A stretch of DNA of 64,000 bases. Source: an uncultured Spirochaetota bacterium. GTDB taxonomy: Bacteria; Spirochaetota; Spirochaetia; SZUA-6; Fen-1364. The translations under genes and the position numbers were made by a program. The stretch is from NCBI GenBank assembly GCA_963820525.1, contig CAWGAA010000001.1, positions 832,001 to 896,000 of the forward strand, given 5' to 3'. The notes under the pieces are model-generated. The model searched no databases. It worked only from the letters and a program-made list of their open reading frames with translations, and had not been told where the DNA came from. Each line of letters opens with the position of its first letter. Within the stretch, counting starts at the first letter, position 1. This document shows positions 1,954 through 15,282 of this stretch, piece by piece.

Positions 1954-3312
1954 GTGAGCCCGGACCAGGGAAGCGGACCGTCAATCAGCGAAAGCGCGCT
2001 CATCGAGAGAATCGGCTGGCTCATCAACCTGCGCTGGCTTGCGGCCGGGGCACTTTTTATTGCCATTGCGGCAGCACGCCTGCTTCTCGGCCAGGACGTC
2101 CCCTTCCTCCCCCTGCTGACGGGAAACCTCCTGCTTGCCGCTTCCAACTTCGGCTATCTTTTCCTCTTCAGAAGGCTTGAACCAGGCAGGACGAGTGCGC
2201 CGGCTCTTGCCAATGCCCAGATCACGCTTGATCTTCTCATCCTGACCTACCTCGTGCACCTCTCGGGCGGAATCGAAAACCCCTTCGTCCTTTTCTTCAT
2301 CTTTCACATGGTCATCGCCAGTATCCTTCTTTCCAATCGCGACGCGTATCTCCAGGCCGGATTCGCCACCCTCGCCACGGCGCTCGCCACGGTGGGCGAA
2401 CAGTCGGGAATCATCCGCCATCACACAATCGAGGGCCTGCTGCTTCCGTCCGGCGGCCCAAGCGGCTGGGCCTGGCTGGCGCGATGGAGCGTCCTCTCCT
2501 CCACGCTGTTCATAACCGTGTATCTCAGCACCACCATCGTGAACAGACTCCGCAGTAAGGAGAGAGAGTTGGAGGAGCTGAATCGACGGCTCCTGGAAAA
2601 CGACCGCGTAAAGTCGAGATACGTCATGACCGTGTCCCATGATATCCGCGGCTCGCTCTCCGCGATCCAGTCGAGCCTGCGGGTCGTTCTGGACGGCTAT
2701 ACGGAACCGATTCCGCAAAAGGCACGCGAAATGATCGAGCGCGCCGAGCTTCGAAGCGAGCAGCTCCAGCGCTTCGTGAAGGATCTCCTGGACCTCTCCC
2801 GGATGCGCGCGGCCGGCCAGATGACCAGGGAGATGATCGACGTGACCGAGCTGTTGGCAGAGGCAGTTGCTCGATCACAGTCTCTCCTGGAAGAGAAGAG
2901 TCTCTCGGCCTCAGTGGAGGATCGGGCCGAAGACTCGACGTTGTGCGCCAATCGCGAGGCTCTCGATCATCTGCTCGAAAACCTCCTGGGCAATGCCATC
3001 CGCTATACGCCGCGGGGGGGAAGGATCTCTCTGGAGCTGGAGGATGCGGCAGCCCCGGGGTGGCTCCAGCTCCACGTGCGCGATACGGGCATCGGAATTC
3101 CCGAGGAGGAGCTTCCCCACATTTTCGAGGATTTCTATCGGGCGAAAAATGCACGGCAGTATGTGCAGGAGAGCACGGGTCTGGGCCTCTCCATCGTCAA
3201 ACAGATCGTGGAAGCCCATGGAGGCGGCGTTCGCGCGAAGAGCGAGCCTGGCGGAGGGACGACCATCACGGTCAGCCTGCCCGGGAAGAGCCTCTCCTGC
3301 GGCGAGCGGTGA
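1954..3312 (+). CDS. Membrane-bound sensor histidine kinase
   Basis: Multiple TM helices; H-box VSHDIRGSL, N-box NLLGNAIRY, G1 DTGIGI, G2 GLGLSIV; AAGGAGG RBS upstream. Confidence 0.93.
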   Translation: MSPDQGSGPSISESALIERIGWLINLRWLAAGALFIAIAAARLLLGQDVPFLPLLTGNLLLAASNFGYLFLFRRLEPGRTSAPALANAQITLDLLILTYLVHLSGGIENPFVLFFIFHMVIASILLSNRDAYLQAGFATLATALATVGEQSGIIRHHTIEGLLLPSGGPSGWAWLARWSVLSSTLFITVYLSTTIVNRLRSKERELEELNRRLLENDRVKSRYVMTVSHDIRGSLSAIQSSLRVVLDGYTEPIPQKAREMIERAELRSEQLQRFVKDLLDLSRMRAAGQMTREMIDVTELLAEAVARSQSLLEEKSLSASVEDRAEDSTLCANREALDHLLENLLGNAIRYTPRGGRISLELEDAAAPGWLQLHVRDTGIGIPEEELPHIFEDFYRAKNARQYVQESTGLGLSIVKQIVEAHGGGVRAKSEPGGGTTITVSLPGKSLSCGER

Positions 3313-3363
3313 AGAGGCGCGGCCCATCTGCCTGCAGCGGGCATTAATCGGAGCGATGGAGCT

Positions 3364-4287
3364 TCAGTCGGATTTCAGCAGTGAGCGCAAGGTAGCAACG
3401 AGGATGCCGGCGTCGACGGGCTTCTGGAATATCCCCGCAAGCCCGAGCTCCCGAGTGCCGATGTTGTAGCGTACGGCGTCCCCCGCGGCGCTCAAGAGGT
3501 AGATGGGGCAGGTGAAGCCGGCCTCCTTCAGGCGCGAGGAGACCTTGCTCCCTGCATCAACCGTCTCCATCATCAGGTCCAGGAGGATCGCATCCGGCTT
3601 CACCGCGTGAGCGATCTTCAACCCCGATTCTCCATCGGCCGCCTCTCCAACGGCGAAACCCGCTGATTCCAACACGATGCGCAGCGCGGCACGCACGTCG
3701 GGGTCGTCGTCGACGATCAGAATGGTCTTGGTCCGTGCCTCAGTCTCCGCCATAAATGCCTCTCTCCCCTTGCGCAGAAGAACATCGAGGAAGGCGACGC
3801 TCAAGGCAGCGTTTCGCCGCGCCCCCCCGCTCAAGCCCTCTCCCACCCCAAAATGATACCCGCGAACCCCGAAAAGCCATGCGGGCGGCCGCGCGCCGAA
3901 GCTCGCTTCGCAGACGGCCAGAAGATCCCGCGGGCCGAAGAGATGCGTGGTGAATGACGTCACGGCTCGTTGATGGCCGCCCGCGCTCACGTTTTCCCGC
4001 CGAATGGGCGTCATGCTGAACGGCGCGGGTCCCTTCCGCGCCGCATCGATGAAGAGCGCGGCCCGCGTAGCGGCAAGCTCAGCACATTGCTCCAGCGCCG
4101 GCTGAAAGGCCGTCTCAACGATGACGAGCCCCGGATGGAGCCTCTCCAGCTCCTCGGCAACGGCAGGCCCGAGACCGTCATCGCGCCGTCCCGGGTTGCC
4201 GTAGCCTAGAATCAAGAGTGGCGGGCCGCCATTACCGTCATGCCGGGAGGCGCCATGAACGCGGATCCACCCATCTCCCTCACTCAT
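3364..4287 (-). CDS. hoxW: Hydrogenase maturation protease (HoxW/HycI-type) in frame with a C-terminal receiver domain (internal ATG at 3753)
   Basis: LILGYGNPGRRDDGLG, FIDAA and TTH protease motifs, then ILIVDDD, LLDLMM and IFQKP REC motifs with no stop between; ATGA overlap with hoxH. Confidence 0.85.
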   Translation of the reverse strand: MSEGDGWIRVHGASRHDGNGGPPLLILGYGNPGRRDDGLGPAVAEELERLHPGLVIVETAFQPALEQCAELAATRAALFIDAARKGPAPFSMTPIRRENVSAGGHQRAVTSFTTHLFGPRDLLAVCEASFGARPPAWLFGVRGYHFGVGEGLSGGARRNAALSVAFLDVLLRKGREAFMAETEARTKTILIVDDDPDVRAALRIVLESAGFAVGEAADGESGLKIAHAVKPDAILLDLMMETVDAGSKVSSRLKEAGFTCPIYLLSAAGDAVRYNIGTRELGLAGIFQKPVDAGILVATLRSLLKSD

Positions 4288-5711
4288 TCCTGCCCGCGGA
4301 CCTTCCTGTCCAGGACACGGCCGCCCGCGTCCACGATCTCCGCTTCGAGCCCCATGCTGCCGAGCGCATGTGTGGCGCAGCTCAGGCATGGATCGAATGC
4401 GCGGATGGCCACCTCCACCTTGTTCAGCAGCCCCTCCGTGATCTTTTTTCCCGAGAGCTCATCCCGCGCCACGGCCTGCACTGCCCTGTTCATCGCTTCG
4501 TTGTTGCTCGTCGTGGAAACGATGAGATTCGCCATCTCCACCGTGTCGTCCGGGCGGACCCGGTAGTGGTGGAAGAGCGTGCCGCGAGGCGCCTCGATCC
4601 AGGAGGCTCCCTCGGATCTCCGCGTTCCGGTGACGATGAGGTCCGCTCCCTGAAGATCGGCATCGTTCAGGAGCTCCGTGATCTTCTCCGCCGCGTGGAG
4701 CGCCTCGATGAGCCTGGCCCAATGGTAGGCAAGGGTCATGTGCACGGGCCTTCCGCCTCCCAGGGAGATGAACTCGCCCCGCTCTTTCTCCGCCAGCGGG
4801 GTGTCGATGAAGTCGCAGGTATTGAGGCGTGCCAGGGGGCCGACACGGTACCAGCCCTTCTCCTTTCCCAATGAGAGGATGAAGGGGAACTTCATGTAGC
4901 TCCACGGCCGCGCTTCCTCGCGGATCACGGTGAGGTACTCGCTGGGGGGCACCTTGTCCAGGATGATCTTTCCCTCAGCATCCTTGGCCCGCAAGAGGCC
5001 GTCGTAGAAGTCCAGAGCGCCGTCCCGGCGAACGATGCTCAAGAAGTTGCCCTCGAACCCCGCGAAGGCGCGGAAGTAGGGCTCGTTCTGGCGGAAAAGC
5101 CTCTTGAACAGGTCGAGGGCCTCCTGCGCCCAGGCGATCATGTTCTGCGTCTGAGGGAGAAGCTCGTCGCGCTCCTTCAGGGAGAGGTTCTTGTTGATCC
5201 CGCCCGGCACAGCGCCCGTGCCATGGATCCTCTTTCCCGCGGTGGCGCGGATGACCTCCTGACCGAATTTCCGCATCAGCACGGCCTTTCGGACGAGCTC
5301 GGGATTCGCGAGCGCCAGCCCCACGACGTTTCGCGTGGAGGGCGCGCTCTCGAATCCGAGGAGAAGGTCCGGCGCGGCGAGGTAGAAGAAATGCAGGGCG
5401 TGGGACTGGAAGACCTGGCCGTAATGCATGAGGCGGCGCATCTTTTCAGCCGTTGGGGTAAGGCGATCCGCGCCCACGACCACATCCATCGCCTTGGCGG
5501 CGGCCAGCAGGTGGCTGATGGGGCAGATCCCGCACAGCCGCTGCACCATGACGGGAACCTCCCAGTAGAGCCGCCCCTGGACGAAGCGCTCGAACCCTCG
5601 AAACTCCACGATGTGGAAGCGCGCGCGCGTCACCTTGCCCGCGTTGTCGAGCTGGATCGTGACCTTGCCGTGGCCTTCCACGCGCGTGACGGGATTGATA
5701 ACGACCTTCAT
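4284..5711 (-). CDS. hoxH: [NiFe]-hydrogenase large subunit, group 3d
   Basis: TRVEGHG, L1 RLCGICP, L2 DPCLSCATH followed by a cleavable C-terminal extension. Confidence 0.95.
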   Translation of the reverse strand: MKVVINPVTRVEGHGKVTIQLDNAGKVTRARFHIVEFRGFERFVQGRLYWEVPVMVQRLCGICPISHLLAAAKAMDVVVGADRLTPTAEKMRRLMHYGQVFQSHALHFFYLAAPDLLLGFESAPSTRNVVGLALANPELVRKAVLMRKFGQEVIRATAGKRIHGTGAVPGGINKNLSLKERDELLPQTQNMIAWAQEALDLFKRLFRQNEPYFRAFAGFEGNFLSIVRRDGALDFYDGLLRAKDAEGKIILDKVPPSEYLTVIREEARPWSYMKFPFILSLGKEKGWYRVGPLARLNTCDFIDTPLAEKERGEFISLGGGRPVHMTLAYHWARLIEALHAAEKITELLNDADLQGADLIVTGTRRSEGASWIEAPRGTLFHHYRVRPDDTVEMANLIVSTTSNNEAMNRAVQAVARDELSGKKITEGLLNKVEVAIRAFDPCLSCATHALGSMGLEAEIVDAGGRVLDRKVRGQE

Positions 5712-5736
5712 TCCACGGCCTCCCATGCTCCAGCCC

Positions 5737-6276
5737 TCAGTCGTACTTGATCATCCGGTAGGCCAGATCGATTTTCGCCCCGGAGAGAAGCGCGGTGAGG
5801 AAGTCCCAGAGTGTGTCCCCCGAGGGCGGACAACCAGGAAGAAAATAGTCGATCTTCACGACTTCATGGCTGGGATACACCCGGTCGAGGAGGATGGGGA
5901 TATCGGGGTCATTGGGCAGGACCCCATCCGCCACCGACGGGCCCTTCAGGTACGCCTCCTCCAGGCATTCGGAGAGCGGCACCATGTTGCGCATGGCCGG
6001 CACGCCACCCGTGAGGGCGCATTCGCCGACCGATACGAGGATGCGGCAATGCTCGCGAAAGGCGCGAAGCACGTGAACGTTCTCGTCGCTGGAGCACCCT
6101 CCCTCGATGAGCCCCACGTCGCAGGGACCGCTGAACTCCTTGATGTCGTCGAGGGGAGACTTGTCGAGGTCCACGAGCTCGATGAGGGAGAGAAGCCGCT
6201 CGTCGATGTCGAGCAGGGACATGTGACAGCCAAAGCAGCCCGTCAGATGGGCCGTCGCGATCCGCGCCTTACCCAT
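5737..6276 (-). CDS. hoxY: [NiFe]-hydrogenase small subunit
   Basis: GCFGCHMS, GECA and PGCPP motifs; short single-cluster form. Confidence 0.93.
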   Translation of the reverse strand: MGKARIATAHLTGCFGCHMSLLDIDERLLSLIELVDLDKSPLDDIKEFSGPCDVGLIEGGCSSDENVHVLRAFREHCRILVSVGECALTGGVPAMRNMVPLSECLEEAYLKGPSVADGVLPNDPDIPILLDRVYPSHEVVKIDYFLPGCPPSGDTLWDFLTALLSGAKIDLAYRMIKYD

Positions 6277-6988
6277 TGGTCTTCCTCTTTCTCTCGATGT
6301 CGGAGCCGATGGGCTCGTTGTCGTAGCGCCTTCTTCCGTACGGGATGCGGTAGCCGAGCCTCTTCACCATGAGGCACCCCGTGGGACAGATGCGCGCCGC
6401 GCGGTCTATTGCGGACATCACCGTGTCCGAGAGACCCGCTTCGGAGTCCACGGCGAGCTCGGTATGAATTCCCCTGCCGACAAAGGCGAACACGCCCTTT
6501 CCGTCAAGGTCGCGCGAGGCGAGCACGCACCTGCCGCACAGGATGCAGCGGTTCCTGTCGACGAAGACGTCGGGATGAGATCCATCGACGGGGCGCCGGG
6601 GATAGAAATAGGGATCCGTCGGGGCGGTCATCCCGAGGCGGTATCCCATGGCCTGAAGCTCGCAGGAGCCGCTCGCTTCGCAGAAGGGGCAGAAGTGGTT
6701 GCCCTCGACGAACATCATCTCCACGATCCGCCGCCTCTCGGCGTTCATCCCCGGCGTATCGTTTTCAACCACCATCCCTTCTCCCGCCGTCATGGTGCAC
6801 GAGCTTGCCGGCCTGCCGTTCACCAGCACGGTGCAGATGCGACAGTGTCCTCCGGGGGCGAGGTCGGGGTGATAGCAGAGCCGGGGGATATAGACGCCGG
6901 CCGCATCCGCGGCCTGGAGAATCGTCTGGCCCTGCTCCGCCTCGATCTTTACCCCATCGATGATGAAGTGAACCCTCTGCTCGCTCAC
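6269..6988 (-). CDS. hoxU: Diaphorase Fe-S subunit (NuoG N-terminal-like)
   Basis: IPRLCYH, CRICTV, HFCPFC, CILCGRC and CPTG cysteine motifs. Confidence 0.92.
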   Translation of the reverse strand: MSEQRVHFIIDGVKIEAEQGQTILQAADAAGVYIPRLCYHPDLAPGGHCRICTVLVNGRPASSCTMTAGEGMVVENDTPGMNAERRRIVEMMFVEGNHFCPFCEASGSCELQAMGYRLGMTAPTDPYFYPRRPVDGSHPDVFVDRNRCILCGRCVLASRDLDGKGVFAFVGRGIHTELAVDSEAGLSDTVMSAIDRAARICPTGCLMVKRLGYRIPYGRRRYDNEPIGSDIERKRKTNG

Positions 6989-8760
6989 TCTGTGCCCCCC
7001 TTTGCCGGAGGTTTCCGCCCGGTGAAGAGGATAGCGGGTTGGAGAGCCTTGTCCAGGTCGAGCTCGGGTCCGAACTCTCCGGGCTGGACGAGCAGATCAT
7101 AGAGGTGGGGGAAGTTTCGAAGGCTCGTGAGGATGGGATTGGCTGAAGTCTGCCCCAGGCCGCAGCGACTCATCCTCTCCACGGTCTGTCCCAGCTTTTC
7201 CAGCTCCGCGAGGTCGGCCCGCACCGCCTTTCCTGCCAGGATCTTGTCCAGCTTCTTCAGCAGCAGGGAGGTGCCGATTCGGCAGGGATCACACCAGCCG
7301 CAGGACTCCTCCACGAAGAAAGCCGTGAAGGCGCGCACAATGCGAAGCACGTCGCGGCTCTCGTCGAACATCATCACGGCGCCGCCCGTCGGCACGTCCT
7401 CGAAGCATATCCGCCTTCCCAGGTCCTTCGCGGCCAGACATTGGCCCGACGGACCTCCCACCTGAACCGCCTGCACCCTTCGCGCCCCCACCGTCTCCAG
7501 CAGCCTGTCGATCACGATCCCGAACTCAAGCTCGTACACCCCCGGACGATCGCAATCCCCCGATACGCTCAGGAGCTTCGTCCCCGTCGAATCCTTGGTG
7601 CCCATCGCGGCGAACCACTCGGCGCCCCGCTCCATGACCCGCGCGGCTGCGCACAGGGTCTCGGCGTTGTTCACGGCTGTGGGCTGATTCTTGAATCCCT
7701 GCTGAACGGGATACGGAGGCCTGTCCCTGGGAGCGCCGCGCTTGCCTTCCAGAGACTCGATGAGGGAGGACTCCTCCCCGCACACGTACGCTCCGGCCCC
7801 GAGCTGGACGCGGATATCGTAATCAAAGCCTTCGCGCCCGCAGACCGAGGAGCCCAAGAGCCCAAGCCTCCGTCTGCGCTCAAGCGCCTGCTCGAGTGAA
7901 TCACGGAGGTACGCGTACTCGCCGCGGAGATACAGGATGCCCTCCCTCGCCCCGAGGGCGTATCCCGCCACCGTCATCCCCTCGAAAAGGAGATCAGGGG
8001 CTTCGGCGAGGATGACCCGGTCCTTGAAGGTGCCCGGCTCCCCCTCGTCGCAGTTGCAGAGCAGATAATGGGCTTCTCCCGGCGCTTTGCGGCAGAGGCT
8101 CCACTTCATCGCCGTCGGAAAGCCCGCCCCACCTCTTCCCCGAAGCCGGGATTTGCCGATCTGCTCGATCACTCCTTCGGGGCTCATGTTCAGGGCGGCC
8201 CTGATGGCGGCGCCCCGTTCCATGGGCGAAAAGATCACCGGGCCAGCTTGGCGGATATTGCTTTCCACCCGTGTTGCGTGAAAGGGGGAGCCCGGGGCCG
8301 CGCGGAGGGCTTTCACGATTTTCTTCGCGTCCTTGGGCGCGATGTTTGTGAGCACGTCGCTGCCTATCAGCGCCGCCGGAGACTGGTCGCACATCCCGAT
8401 GCAGGAGGTGTGGGCGAGGGAGATCTCGTTATCCGATCCGGCCTGCCCGAAACGCGTCCCCGTTTCCTTCTCCAGCGCCCGTTCCACCTCTTCGGCGCCC
8501 CGCAGCGCGCCCGCCACGCAGGTGCTGAGACGGATCGTCGCCTTTCCCTCGGGCTCAAGCGAGATGAAGGAGTAGAAGCTCAAGCAGTCCCTCACCTCCA
8601 CGGGCCTCAGGCCCAGAGCCTGGGCGATTTCGCTCACGGACTGCCGGCCGACGAAGCCGAACCGAGCCTGCACTTCACGTGCAACGTCGAGCAGCCGCGT
8701 ACTGTCATTGCCGAATCGCTTTGCGATTTCCCCCACGATTGAAGAGGTGTCATCAGGCAT
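6985..8760 (-). CDS. hoxF: Diaphorase flavoprotein subunit (NuoE-like + NuoF domains)
   Basis: LRGRGGAGFPT, CNCDEGEPGTFKDR, GAGAYVCGEE, ESCGWCDPCRIG; AAGGAGG RBS before ATG 8760. Confidence 0.94.
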   Translation of the reverse strand: MPDDTSSIVGEIAKRFGNDSTRLLDVAREVQARFGFVGRQSVSEIAQALGLRPVEVRDCLSFYSFISLEPEGKATIRLSTCVAGALRGAEEVERALEKETGTRFGQAGSDNEISLAHTSCIGMCDQSPAALIGSDVLTNIAPKDAKKIVKALRAAPGSPFHATRVESNIRQAGPVIFSPMERGAAIRAALNMSPEGVIEQIGKSRLRGRGGAGFPTAMKWSLCRKAPGEAHYLLCNCDEGEPGTFKDRVILAEAPDLLFEGMTVAGYALGAREGILYLRGEYAYLRDSLEQALERRRRLGLLGSSVCGREGFDYDIRVQLGAGAYVCGEESSLIESLEGKRGAPRDRPPYPVQQGFKNQPTAVNNAETLCAAARVMERGAEWFAAMGTKDSTGTKLLSVSGDCDRPGVYELEFGIVIDRLLETVGARRVQAVQVGGPSGQCLAAKDLGRRICFEDVPTGGAVMMFDESRDVLRIVRAFTAFFVEESCGWCDPCRIGTSLLLKKLDKILAGKAVRADLAELEKLGQTVERMSRCGLGQTSANPILTSLRNFPHLYDLLVQPGEFGPELDLDKALQPAILFTGRKPPAKGGTE

Positions 8761-8876
8761 GTCCGCCTCCTTCCCCGGAAGGCCAGTCAACGGCTCGCCT
8801 CGAGGGCGGCCACCATGGAGAAAGCGGTCTCGCAACAGCCGGCCGAGGCGGCCGGCGAGCAGATTTCTATTCAGCC

Positions 8877-8976: not shown

Positions 8977-10092
8977 TCATTTCCCGAAAGCCGCGATCCC
9001 CGTCTCAAGCTCCCCGCGACCCGCCGGGTTGTCCGGCAGCGCGCCTGCGGATTGCACGGCCGCGATGACATAATCCCGGACCAGGCTCTCCGGAATCCTC
9101 ATCATCGCGGGGTAATCCAGGTCCGCGGTGAGGACCACCACCAGATCGTAGACGGGAAGAACGAATATCCGCTGGCCCCCGTATCCATCGGCGTCGTATC
9201 CGCCAAACGGCGTCACCCACCAGTGCAGGGCGTACCCCTGCCCTTCCAGCGCATCCATCCGCCGCGCCGTGGACTCCCGAACCCAGGAGGCGGGAACGAT
9301 CTCGATCGCCATCCATCGTCCCTCCCGCAGGTAGAGGTAACCGAAGCGGGCCATGTCCCGGCTGGTCATTCTGACTGCGTACCCGCCGAACGAAGTGCCG
9401 TCGGAGGCGGTAGGCCAGATGGCGCTCGTAATGCCGAGAGGACCGAGGAGGTTCTCCCGGGCGAAGTCAGCCTCCTTCTTCCCGGTGACCTTCTGGAGTA
9501 TCGCGGAAATCACCTCGGAGCCGCCGGTGTTGTAGTTCCAGCGGCTCCCCGGCACGGCTTCAAGCGGGCGGCTCAATACGAAGCCCACCCTATCGGGCTC
9601 CTTCTCCATCTTGAGAAGACTGTCGGATGCATTCGGAGACTCCCATTCATCCCATGCCAGACCACTGGTCATGCCCAGGAGCTGGGCGATAGTGATCGAT
9701 GCCTTGCGGGGATCATCAGCCCCATCTGCAGGGAAGAAGTCGATAACCTTCTGCTCGATACTCTGGAGCAGTCCCTTCCGCAGGGCAATGCCGATGAGAG
9801 CCGACGTCAGACTCTTGGTGCAGGAGTTGATGGGCTGCGGCGCTTCCGCGGAAAAGCCTCTCGCGTAGGCTTCCAGCGCTACTTTGCCATGCCGAACCAC
9901 CAGCACGGAATGAAGCGCGATCCGGCTGCTGATCACATACCGGAGCATCTTTGCCAGGACGGAGGAGCTCATCCCGACGTTTTCCGGCGAAGCGTATCTC
10001 CAGGCGGCGCCGGGCCATTGGCCCGTTTGCGTCCAGGCGAGCGCGGAAACAAGGAGAAGAAGCGCCGAAAGGAAAGCATCCCGCGCTCTCAA
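8977..10092 (-). CDS. Secreted serine hydrolase, beta-lactamase/AmpC-like family
   Basis: Signal peptide; SCTK (SxxK), LLGMTSGL and WNYNT motifs. Confidence 0.88.
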   Translation of the reverse strand: MRARDAFLSALLLLVSALAWTQTGQWPGAAWRYASPENVGMSSSVLAKMLRYVISSRIALHSVLVVRHGKVALEAYARGFSAEAPQPINSCTKSLTSALIGIALRKGLLQSIEQKVIDFFPADGADDPRKASITIAQLLGMTSGLAWDEWESPNASDSLLKMEKEPDRVGFVLSRPLEAVPGSRWNYNTGGSEVISAILQKVTGKKEADFARENLLGPLGITSAIWPTASDGTSFGGYAVRMTSRDMARFGYLYLREGRWMAIEIVPASWVRESTARRMDALEGQGYALHWWVTPFGGYDADGYGGQRIFVLPVYDLVVVLTADLDYPAMMRIPESLVRDYVIAAVQSAGALPDNPAGRGELETGIAAFGK

Positions 10093-12863: not shown

Positions 12864-12900
12864 GGGCCGCCCGCCGGTGCATCGGATAGAGGCGGCGTGC

Positions 12901-15282
12901 ATGTCAGAAGACGTGACGACGCGATTCGATCCCGCACACGAGAAACAGGAGTTGAGCTGCCTCCACATCAGCTCGCTCCTCCGATACCTGGACGGCAGGC
13001 TCGGCCCCGAGCGGGTGGCCCAGGCGGTCGAGCCCCTGGGGCTTCCCCTCGCGTACCTGCGCAACACCGGCAATTGGGTATCCTTCGAGTTCACAAACTC
13101 CCTGATGGCAAAGCTGGTGGAAGCGACGGAAGACGAACAGGCCCCCTACAAGGCCGCTTTCAGCGTCAGGCCCCGGGAGCTGCGCGACTCCATGCTTTTC
13201 GCCGCGGGGGCGGCGATCCTGTCGGGATCTCCCAAGGCCGCCTATCGGATCAGCCTGGGATCCGACTCCTACAAACGCTGGATGAGGATCGGGGAGTTTT
13301 CCATCCTCGAATCATCCCCGACGTCCATGCGAGTGTCTCTGACCCTGAAAGAGGGGTATCGACAGACCCGCGCCTTCTGCCTCGCCGTTCAGGGGATGCT
13401 GGCAAGCGTGCCCCTGGCGATCGGGCTTCCGAAGGCCTCCATCCAGGAGATCCAATGCGCCGCGGAAGGAGCAGCCGGCTGCATGTACCTGGTGAAGTGG
13501 AAGAACAGGTCGAACAGGCCCCTCCTCTACGGCCTTCCTCTGTTGGCGGTCCTGCTCGCGGTGGAAGCCGTGTTCACCCCGTCGCTCTTTCACGTCCATG
13601 ACATCGCGATCACGTTTCTTTCGATTTCCACCCTGATGCTCCTGGCGCGCACCTTCCAATTCCGTAAATCGCTCCGCCAGGAGGAGAGCCTTTCGCAGGA
13701 ACGGGACGAGCTTCTCGTGAAGGCTCTGAAAAAGATCGAAAAAGACTACAGGCAGCTCTTCGAAATCCAGAGCCGTCTCGAGGAACGGACCCAGTTCCTT
13801 TCCATTGTCAATGAGGTGGCGGCAAGCATCTCGAGGGAGGCAAGCCTTCCCTCCCTCGTGGCCAATGTCGCAGCCTTGCTGCGGCAGCGCCTCGGTTTCT
13901 TCAAGGGAGAGTTCTTCCAGTATGACGAGCCCAACCGCCGGTACCTCTCCTTTATCAAGAAGGGCGCCATTCTCCCGGAAAGCGAATACCTCTCGCTTGA
14001 GACGAGACGCTTCAGCGTGCCCGCCTCCAACGTGAGCGCCGAGGCGTTTCCCACCATCCATGCCTGGCGCCGGACATCGAGCGCAGACCTGTACATCATG
14101 CCGGTCTTCGCCCCCGAGGCGTTCTCCGGCTTCTACTGCTTTCTCTCGGAATCGTCGCGCTCAAGCTCCCTCTCGCTCGTCGAGCCGCTTTTCGAGAGCA
14201 TCGCAAGTCAGTTGAAGGTGGCATTCCTGAAGATCGCCTCGAAAAACGTGATCGACACGATCCTGGCGAGCATCCCCGCGTACGTGCTCATCTTCAACCG
14301 CGATACCCTGATCGTGCGCTACGTGAACAAGCATTTCATGCAGTCCTTCACGAAGAGCGAAGCCGCGGCGGTGGGCTCCCCCCTCTTCTCGCTTTTTCCC
14401 TTCGCACCCGAGGCCCTCGGAAACATCGAATCGATCGCGCGCGGCATCGAGATGAGCGGGCGTTCCGCCGTCTTCGAGGCGGCCATCGGACCAAGCGTCT
14501 ACGAGTACAGCGTGTTCGCCATCCCGCAGGCGAGCGAGGGGGAGCGGCTCGCCGGGATCATCATCTCCGACATCAGCGAGGCGAAGTACTTCCAGAAGAA
14601 CCTCCTCATCAATGAAAAGCTTCTCGCCCTCGGGCGGGTTGCGAGCGGGATCGCCCACGAGATCAACAACCCGCTGTACGCGGTGCTCGCGAACGCGGAG
14701 GAGATCGTCGATGACCAAACGGTGAGCGGGGACTCCCGCGCCCTCGCCCAGGAGATCATCGAGCACGTGATGAACGTCTCCAACGTGATCAGGGACCTTT
14801 CCAACTATTCCAAGAGCCTGCGAAAGGAGGAGCGGACGGACATCGACGTGAACTCCGTGATCGAGGAGTCCCTGGTGCTCGTGAGGTACGGCTCCAACAT
14901 CATGGAAATCGACGTCGAAAAGGATCTCCGCCCGCTGCCTGCCCTCCGCGCCACCAAGGGGGAGATGCAGCAGGTCTTCATCAACATCTTCACGAACGCC
15001 ATCCATGCTATGGAGGGCAAAGGCACCCTTTCCATCCGTTCCCGCTGCGAGCAGGACGGCATCGAGGTGGCAATTTCAGACACCGGCACGGGAATCAGGG
15101 AGAGCGACCTTCCCTACATCTTCGATTTGTTCTTCACCACGAAGAAAACGGGCGAGGGCACGGGACAGGGCCTGTACATCGTCAAGAAGATCATGGCGAG
15201 CTACGGGGGAAGCATAGCCGTGCGAAGCGAGGAGGGGCGCGGGACGACGTTCACCCTCCGTTTCGATTCCAGGAGAAGCTGA
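12901..15282 (+). CDS. Sensor histidine kinase with N-terminal V4R/H-NOX-like domain, TM pair and GAF/PAS-like regions
   Basis: FCLAVQG...EIQCAAEGAAGCMY V4R-like cysteine pattern; H-box AHEINNPL; NAIHA; DTGTGI; GTGQGL. Confidence 0.88.
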   Translation: MSEDVTTRFDPAHEKQELSCLHISSLLRYLDGRLGPERVAQAVEPLGLPLAYLRNTGNWVSFEFTNSLMAKLVEATEDEQAPYKAAFSVRPRELRDSMLFAAGAAILSGSPKAAYRISLGSDSYKRWMRIGEFSILESSPTSMRVSLTLKEGYRQTRAFCLAVQGMLASVPLAIGLPKASIQEIQCAAEGAAGCMYLVKWKNRSNRPLLYGLPLLAVLLAVEAVFTPSLFHVHDIAITFLSISTLMLLARTFQFRKSLRQEESLSQERDELLVKALKKIEKDYRQLFEIQSRLEERTQFLSIVNEVAASISREASLPSLVANVAALLRQRLGFFKGEFFQYDEPNRRYLSFIKKGAILPESEYLSLETRRFSVPASNVSAEAFPTIHAWRRTSSADLYIMPVFAPEAFSGFYCFLSESSRSSSLSLVEPLFESIASQLKVAFLKIASKNVIDTILASIPAYVLIFNRDTLIVRYVNKHFMQSFTKSEAAAVGSPLFSLFPFAPEALGNIESIARGIEMSGRSAVFEAAIGPSVYEYSVFAIPQASEGERLAGIIISDISEAKYFQKNLLINEKLLALGRVASGIAHEINNPLYAVLANAEEIVDDQTVSGDSRALAQEIIEHVMNVSNVIRDLSNYSKSLRKEERTDIDVNSVIEESLVLVRYGSNIMEIDVEKDLRPLPALRATKGEMQQVFINIFTNAIHAMEGKGTLSIRSRCEQDGIEVAISDTGTGIRESDLPYIFDLFFTTKKTGEGTGQGLYIVKKIMASYGGSIAVRSEEGRGTTFTLRFDSRRS

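Follow-up and report, generated by a model that had tools for sequence, protein, structure and literature searches.

We analyzed a 64,000-nucleotide window from the genome of an uncultured Spirochaetota bacterium (assembly GCA_963820525.1, contig CAWGAA010000001.1, positions 832,001 to 896,000), in which one open reading frame joins hoxW, encoding a hydrogenase maturation protease, to a receiver (REC) domain. The fused frame, hoxW-REC, is the last gene of a hoxF-U-Y-H operon on the minus strand. Comparison with related loci indicates that an older pair, consisting of hoxW and a single-domain receiver gene, occurs naturally in two interchangeable states, of which this fusion is one, and that the ATG at position 3753, inside the fused frame, ancestrally started the receiver gene and is a relic of the separate gene kept after fusion. 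The free receiver is probably still translated from this codon beside the full-length protein. For the function of the locus we favor, tentatively and at slightly below an even chance, a reading in which the fused state of the cassette would give two products and the phosphorylation state of the receiver would control removal of the C-terminal tail of the large hydrogenase subunit, HoxH.

Fused and separate states of the cassette

A preliminary description of the window had reported that the protease runs without a stop into a complete receiver domain. The frame bears this out, as it encodes a single protein of 307 residues in which both domains score above their model cut-offs. Its ATG at 4287 overlaps the hoxH stop codon as ATGA, the frame closes at TGA 3366..3364, and the fusion junction reads ...FLDVLLRKGREAF-MAETEARTKTILIVDDD. 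The same description had cautioned that a single indel would leave two ordinary overlapping genes, on account of a TGA in another frame just inside the receiver start, and had named reads over 3740-3800 as the evidence that should decide. The TGA is there, at 3742..3740, 11 bases after the internal ATG. We aligned contigs from four public metagenome runs, one of which may be the window's own source sample, to positions 3300-4400; runs X2 and X5 belong to different studies, and run X1 gave just short unrelated pieces. The X2 contig spans 3300-4072 with one differing letter and no gaps, the X5 contig spans 3696-3846 with no gaps, and both cross the junction. For none of the four runs was an insertion or deletion over 3300-4400 listed.

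The frame is shared by relatives. Among 724 homologues from a protein search, the top 120 were all 251-307 residues long with 80-100% query coverage and 48-100% identity; one of them, an 80%-identical fused relative, lies on a 25-kb contig. The fused form was common to 116 protein clusters. Among 301 sampled genomes of the window's phylum, 11 (its own included) carried an uninterrupted full-length match, and in a further eight the full-length match was broken by one or two stop codons. The caution about an indel thus holds in one respect, that real relatives do look like two overlapping genes, and fails in the other, as the fusion is not an error in this window.

A scan with one genome per species gave at least 546 confirmed relatives among at least 599 pattern matches, and the best 80 loci were searched with each half of the protein in turn. 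Both halves were found in 75 of the 80 loci, always in the order hoxW then REC and with the receiver directly behind. These comprised 27 loci fused in frame, 20 with the halves in the same frame and a stop between them, and 28 with the halves in different frames; measured between protease stop and receiver start, they overlap by as much as 47 bases or lie as much as 74 bases apart. The cassette had hoxH directly upstream in 79 of the 80 loci, the exception being a short contig. The preliminary description had regarded such proteases as normally stand-alone. That does not apply to this lineage, where the receiver gene normally follows at once (27 fused and 48 separate). It had also proposed a search for the protease plus Response_reg architecture in homologous loci; with 27 of 75 fused, not all of them encode the two parts separately.

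Thirteen phylum-level names were represented among the loci with both halves. As labelled, these were Spirochaetota, Hydrogenedentota, Nitrospirota, Planctomycetota, Acidobacteriota, Krumholzibacteriota, Chloroflexota, Lentisphaerota, Verrucomicrobiota, Myxococcota, Poribacteria and Sumerlaeota, together with one Bradyrhizobium. Fused loci among the best 80 came from Spirochaetota, Hydrogenedentota and Nitrospirota only, and one fused cluster from the protein search was labelled as a Brocadiia metagenome-assembled genome (MAG).

We placed the two states on a HoxH tree of 69 rows, built with a quick method and rooted at the midpoint. One clade contained separate genes only (31 rows, plus three without receiver), and a mixed clade contained 24 fused rows, nine separate and two without hoxW. 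The tree needs six changes between the fused and separate states, at least four of which are forced by well-supported branches. The window HoxH is sister to that of a Spirochaetota MAG (locus L001), with 81% HoxH identity. Unfused arrangements within the mixed clade are backed by paired independent assemblies, L034 with L035 and L038 with L041. The different-frame state of L024 and L034 may be an assembly error, because hoxH also appears broken there, although L034 has the backing of L035. Compared with their fused relatives, L016 and L030 have a stop codon one to two codons before the methionine that starts the receiver, and in many clade A loci the TGA stop of hoxW forms part of the Shine-Dalgarno site. 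HoxH is nearly identical between Hydrogenedentota- and Nitrospirales-labelled MAGs (L005 and L011 against L007 and L014), with end branches of 0.03 for L011 and 0.02 for L007, which reflects either a recent transfer of the operon or mis-binning.

The internal start and the two domains

The purine-rich Shine-Dalgarno sequence that had been described before ATG 3753 is present as AAGGGGAGAGAGG at 3771..3759. In the 116 fused clusters, the junction methionine was found without exception, 113 times in the same column and three times shifted by one column, and the linker around it has diverged (SRGSEAF-M, RTYEERT-M and DQWRGKN-M). To score the site, we paired the 17 bases before the ATG with the anti-Shine-Dalgarno motif and computed the duplex energy. 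The window site reached -8.3 kcal/mol, and the means were -7.8 kcal/mol in 28 fused loci (window included) and -7.3 in 50 unfused receiver genes. As a control, 792 other in-frame ATGs of the same operons averaged -2.9 kcal/mol (Mann-Whitney p 2e-16, a value that overstates independence because the loci are related). Synonymous recoding of the seven preceding codons gave an average of -5.7, and the real site was stronger than the mean of its recodings in 26 of 28 loci, so the Shine-Dalgarno site is written partly in the amino acids of the linker and partly in codon choice. As the junction methionine and the Shine-Dalgarno site have both been kept in the fused forms, a free receiver is probably still made. 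The earlier proposal that the locus could yield both a fusion and a free REC protein fits the universal methionine and a site as strong as that of unfused genes.

The protease half matched the TIGR00072 hydrog_prot model of NCBIfam with 65.7 bits against a cut-off of 47.45; the Pfam HycI model gave no match in the fusion protein at E 0.01. In a pairwise alignment with Escherichia coli HybD (1cfz; weak, E 0.044), residues D37, D81 and H115 align to E16, D62 and H93, which we take to be the metal ligands of HybD. Both D81 and H115 were present in all 116 fused clusters, and D36/D37 in 114, the remaining two being gapped there. Foldseek matched the protease half to HybD (1cfz_A, template modeling score TMt 0.68), to HycI of Thermococcus (5zby, TMt 0.73) and to 5ttx_C (TMt 0.68), and AlphaFold2 modelled the domain with a predicted local distance difference test (pLDDT) value mostly above 90. 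By sequence and predicted structure, the protease half belongs to the A31 endopeptidases and looks functional, and it is predicted to cleave the large-subunit tail once nickel has been inserted.

The receiver half matched Pfam Response_reg (PF00072) with 71.7 bits against a cut-off of 30.2. Residues D193-D195, D237 and S266 were present in 116 of 116 fused clusters and K289 in 115. AlphaFold2 gave a (beta-alpha)5 fold with a very short alpha4, and the best Foldseek match was Spo0F (6ifh, TMt 0.91). The usual receiver motif after the acceptor Asp is D-x-x-M-P-x-M-D-G; the subfamily of the window reads D-L-M-M-E-T-V-D-A-G. The stretch of residues 269-290 is nearly invariant and runs from alpha4 to beta5, where receivers usually have their output face. 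The receiver half looks functional from its conserved residues, and its phosphorylation is predicted.

In the AlphaFold2 model of the whole protein, the mean pLDDT was 82.7 and the domains were confident, with a predicted template modeling score (pTM) of 0.55 and linker residues 180-183 below a pLDDT of 50. A two-chain prediction of the protease half with the receiver half scored 0.00 against a mark of 0.32, which speaks neither for nor against binding.

The operon, its kinases and a second cassette

The operon combines diaphorase genes (NuoE/F-like and NuoG-like) with the small and large hydrogenase subunits, and the order is the same in related loci (Table 1). By Pfam domains and gene order, it is an NAD-linked bidirectional [NiFe] hydrogenase operon of the group 3d type. 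In translation, HoxH ends with DPCLSCATH followed by a 27-residue tail, which is the presumed substrate of HoxW. HoxF is a HoxE-HoxF fusion with a thioredoxin-type [2Fe-2S] NuoE-like domain at its N-terminus; its listed TTG start is probably some 20-30 codons too far upstream, because relatives align only from about residue 20-30. A promoter and terminator scan of 3200-4400 gave no promoter-like site and one terminator-like site, at chance level. Just upstream of the operon lies a gene of the beta-lactamase family (serine hydrolase; 8977-10092, minus strand) with no evident link to it.

Table 1. Features of the hox operon, the fused frame and the adjoining kinase (window coordinates)
Feature	Position	Strand	Details
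hoxW-REC fused frame	4287..3364	minus	307 residues plus stop; no internal stop
A31 hydrogenase maturation endopeptidase domain	3796..4215	minus	residues 25-164, TIGR00072
Shine-Dalgarno-like stretch AAGGGGAGAGAGG in linker codons	3771..3759	minus	5 bases before ATG 3753
Internal ATG (Met179)	3753..3751	minus	receiver start codon in unfused relatives
Receiver (REC) domain without output domain	3388..3723	minus	residues 189-300, PF00072
hoxH, [NiFe] large subunit	4284..5726	minus	Pfam NiFeSe_Hases
hoxY, small subunit	5737..6276	minus	Pfam Oxidored_q6
hoxU, diaphorase iron-sulfur subunit	6269..6988	minus	Pfam Fer2_4, NADH-G_4Fe-4S_3, Fer4
hoxF with NuoE-like N-terminal part	6985..8835	minus	Pfam 2Fe-2S_thioredx, Complex1_51K, NADH_4Fe-4S
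Histidine kinase, PilS-like six-helix membrane domain	1954..3312	plus	Pfam 6TM_PilS, HisKA, HATPase_c

On the other side of the fused gene, a PilS-like histidine kinase is convergent with it, with 52 bases between the two stops, and is a candidate for the cognate kinase of the receiver. We took a census of kinases among the 77 loci with a receiver match, 71 of which had at least 1.2 kb of downstream sequence. It comprised 123 downstream open reading frames, at most two per locus, of which 120 were scanned against Pfam and three long second frames were dropped because of their size. A histidine kinase was among the first two downstream genes in 18 of the 71 loci, and a tblastn search with the window kinase added L031, L050 and L078, where the choice of reading frame had fallen on the opposite strand, for a total of 21. 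The PilS-like membrane part found relatives in 11 loci, and the other sensor types near the cassette were GAF, Cache and cNMP-GAF. By adjacency, the pairing of kinase and cassette is no more than suggestive.

Several further arrangements were seen around the cassettes. In L037, near an unfused pair, a kinase at 2845-4890 on the minus strand combines an [FeFe]-hydrogenase-like sensor part (Fe_hyd_lg_C and FeS) with HisKA and HATPase_c; this kinase could possibly be a hydrogen or redox sensor feeding the receiver, and a second kinase sits between it and the receiver. In L033, whose operon is without hoxW, the receiver is followed (2109-3278) by a hybrid protein with a receiver of its own plus HisKA and HATPase_c, which hints at a phosphorelay. 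In five unfused loci (L040, L052, L066, L074 and L075), hypF or hypB (cobW-type) maturation genes come after the cassette or its kinase, and the receiver lies between the protease and further maturation genes. The window itself holds a second large histidine kinase of 801 residues (12877-15282, plus strand; HisKA and HATPase_c) on the far side of the hox operon, about 4 kb away.

The window's genome (5.05 Mb in four contigs) encodes four A31 proteases, and one of them belongs to a second cassette. On another contig (L088, 8408-13266), a four-subunit group-3b-like hydrogenase operon consists of a Fer4_22 subunit, an FAD/NAD subunit and the small and large subunits, followed by a HycI protease and then a separate single-domain receiver. 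The ATG of this receiver overlaps the protease stop (ATGA), with AAGGAGGAGG upstream; the receiver is 39% identical to that of the window (6e-27) and, behind its acceptor Asp, carries the same unusual motif. A metagenome scan with the 3b-type receiver kept 80 loci, 75 of them with at least 450 bases upstream. In all 37 loci whose receiver was at least 73% identical, the protease ends at the receiver start and the large subunit comes before it, and the arrangement was found in none of the 38 loci whose receiver was at most 44% identical. No fusion occurred among the 37 close loci, and none was found among longer homologues of the 3b-type protease, which is weak evidence. In the phylum sample, the 3b-type protease was present in two of the 301 genomes, the other of which (L090) had no receiver within about 1.5 kb. 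The third A31 protease locus of the genome, L083, has a frame of at most 251 residues and shows no fusion to a receiver.

Possible roles of the receiver

A receiver without DNA-binding or enzymatic output must act by protein contact, and its place behind the protease, often translationally coupled and repeatedly fused, argues that receiver and protease act together. Under the reading we favor, full-length HoxW-REC would be made from ATG 4287 by translational coupling to hoxH, and a free receiver of 129 residues from the retained internal ribosome-binding site and ATG 3753. Asp237 would be phosphorylated by a dedicated sensor kinase, here perhaps the convergent PilS-like one, and in one phosphorylation state the receiver would bind HoxW or the HoxW/pre-HoxH complex and thereby permit or block removal of the 27-residue tail. 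An environmental signal could in this way set the amount of active hydrogenase after translation. Within this scheme we infer internal initiation, the partner kinase and, above all, the target of the receiver, so that gating of HoxH cleavage by phosphorylation, as first proposed in the preliminary description, is the most conditional step. The broader proposal is that two-component phosphorylation of a dedicated receiver, whether attached to the protease or produced separately, directly gates cleavage of the nickel-loaded large subunit as the last step of [NiFe] maturation, and that this is a general and as yet unrecognised checkpoint of soluble group 3d and 3b-like hydrogenases in many uncultured phyla; we consider it somewhat unlikely.

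Several observations weigh against this reading. In the 27 fused loci, receiver identity is 62-77% and protease identity 32-57%; the receiver is conserved about like the large subunit, which suggests a partner more conserved than the protease. The 3b cassette has corresponding identities of 73-84% for the receiver, 30-57% for the protease and 74-96% for the large subunit. Two operons (L033 and L036) carry the receiver right after hoxH without hoxW there, A31 proteases being encoded elsewhere in these genomes, and three operons (L055, L076 and L079) carry hoxW without a receiver. That the internal start has been retained implies a need for the free receiver, in which case the tether may not matter. 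With its low pTM and low-confidence linker, the model predicts no fixed packing between the domains. Kinase adjacency is limited to a minority of loci (21/71) and is rarer among the fused ones (2 of 24 scanned, plus the window), and the relatedness of the loci tempers the statistics of the internal start. In sum, the conservation of the receiver, its persistence without hoxW and its retained free form weigh against the protease as its sole partner.

Many of the same observations would follow if the fusion were a neutral read-through. The receiver would then be independent of HoxW, serving as a sink for phosphate or as a connector within a two-component circuit through which another regulator sets hox transcription; a receiver at the operon end would provide feedback, loss of the hoxW stop would be harmless, and the working form would be the free receiver from the internal start. 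This would account for the methionine and Shine-Dalgarno site kept in all fused forms, for the toggling of state by a single base change (in L016 and L030, and through the TGA within the Shine-Dalgarno site of clade A loci), for the at least four to six changes of state, for the lack of predicted interdomain packing and for the receivers that persist without hoxW. It fits poorly with a gene order in which REC follows hoxW, overlapping or nearly touching it, in 75 of the 80 loci and under 13 phylum-level names, and which is repeated in another class of hydrogenase, since a receiver acting on transcription only has no evident reason to follow the protease every time. Moreover, no DNA-binding response regulator recurs in the neighbourhood, as judged from the downstream frames scanned with Pfam, and the fused arrangement has outlasted the divergence of HoxW to 32-57% identity. 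We regard a neutral fusion as unlikely, though it is the strongest of the alternatives.

The conservation data could also reflect an accessory regulatory subunit, with the receiver, free or tethered, docking on the HoxFU diaphorase or on HoxYH and tuning activity or assembly by its phosphorylation state. Its position would then be analogous to that of HoxI, a small protein whose gene follows hoxW in the operon for the soluble hydrogenase of Cupriavidus necator. Receiver identity matches that of HoxH (63-81%) and HoxY, unlike that of HoxW, and likewise in the 3b cassette; the near-invariant stretch from alpha4 to beta5 and the receivers that stay in operons without hoxW point the same way. It would be awkward, however, for a stoichiometric subunit to be joined to a protease, which has to dissociate once the enzyme is mature, and translational coupling ties the receiver to the protease gene rather than to any structural gene. 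This alternative appears to us less probable still than a neutral fusion. Finally, a sequencing or assembly error, by which a 1-base indel in the GA-rich junction would have fused two truly overlapping genes, is suggested by the out-of-frame TGA and by the overlapping genes in different frames of L034, L035, L038 and L041, but can be set aside as extremely improbable because of the gap-free independent contigs, the full-length homologues (the 80%-identical relative and 115 further clusters share the frame, as do 27 species genomes) and the 11 genomes of the phylum.

To our knowledge, regulation of [NiFe] hydrogenases acts on transcription, and maturation is viewed as an assembly line that runs constitutively. 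A receiver welded to a maturation protease points to signal-dependent control after translation, and the pairing recurs in 13 phylum-level names and two hydrogenase classes. It also has a bearing on attempts to produce the NAD-linked hydrogenases of uncultured bacteria in other hosts, in which maturation might be blocked if the receiver is absent or not phosphorylated. As a natural example, the locus moreover shows cleanly how two genes can alternate between fusion and separation without losing the internal start. It offers testable handles in Asp237, in phosphotransfer from the adjoining kinase and in cleavage of the HoxH tail.

Comparison with known systems

A full-text literature search, with subscription journals outside its scope, returned no description of a hydrogenase protease that is fused to a receiver or paired with one. 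In passages of PMC12727194, HycI and Response_reg appear just as separate neighbourhood clusters. The source databases label the fusion protein plainly as 'hydrogenase maturation protease'. The fusion is built from two well-known domains and is not a new kind of system; new are the repeated switching between states, the persistence of the internal start, the counts of adjacent kinases, the confirmation of the frame on independent contigs and the 3b-type cassette.

The closest known counterpart of the protease half is HoxW of C. necator H16 and of cyanobacteria, a HoxH-specific endopeptidase of peptidase family A31. It shares with the window protein the TIGR00072 model, the place after hoxH in a hoxFUYH operon and a substrate with DPCxxCxxH and a tail; it is a stand-alone protein of about 150-200 residues, whereas the window gene has an in-frame receiver and an internal start. 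HybD (1cfz) and HycI (5zby) have the same fold and the aligned metal triad, but they show weak sequence similarity to the window protease (E 0.044), serve other hydrogenase groups and have no receiver.

For the receiver half, the comparison is with CheY, Spo0F, DivK, CpdR and RssB, single-domain response regulators that act by protein contact. Like them, the window receiver has all the residues of phospho-chemistry and no DNA-binding output; unlike it, none of them is known to be linked to the maturation protease of a metalloenzyme. That receivers can control proteolysis is known from CpdR and RssB, which steer ClpXP. Two-component signalling dedicated to [NiFe] hydrogenase, as proposed here, has its precedent in the hydrogen-sensing systems HoxJ-HoxA and HupT-HupR, which act on transcription via an NtrC-type DNA-binding regulator. 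These are not known to be encoded behind the protease, whereas the window receiver is without an output domain and tied to a maturation protease. Two proteins from one gene by in-frame internal starts are likewise known, from the long and short forms of CheA and from IF2. As in the window, a Shine-Dalgarno sequence and an ATG lie within the coding frame and are kept across relatives; unlike those of CheA and IF2, the internal start of the window, whose use is predicted, appears as the relic of a separate gene.

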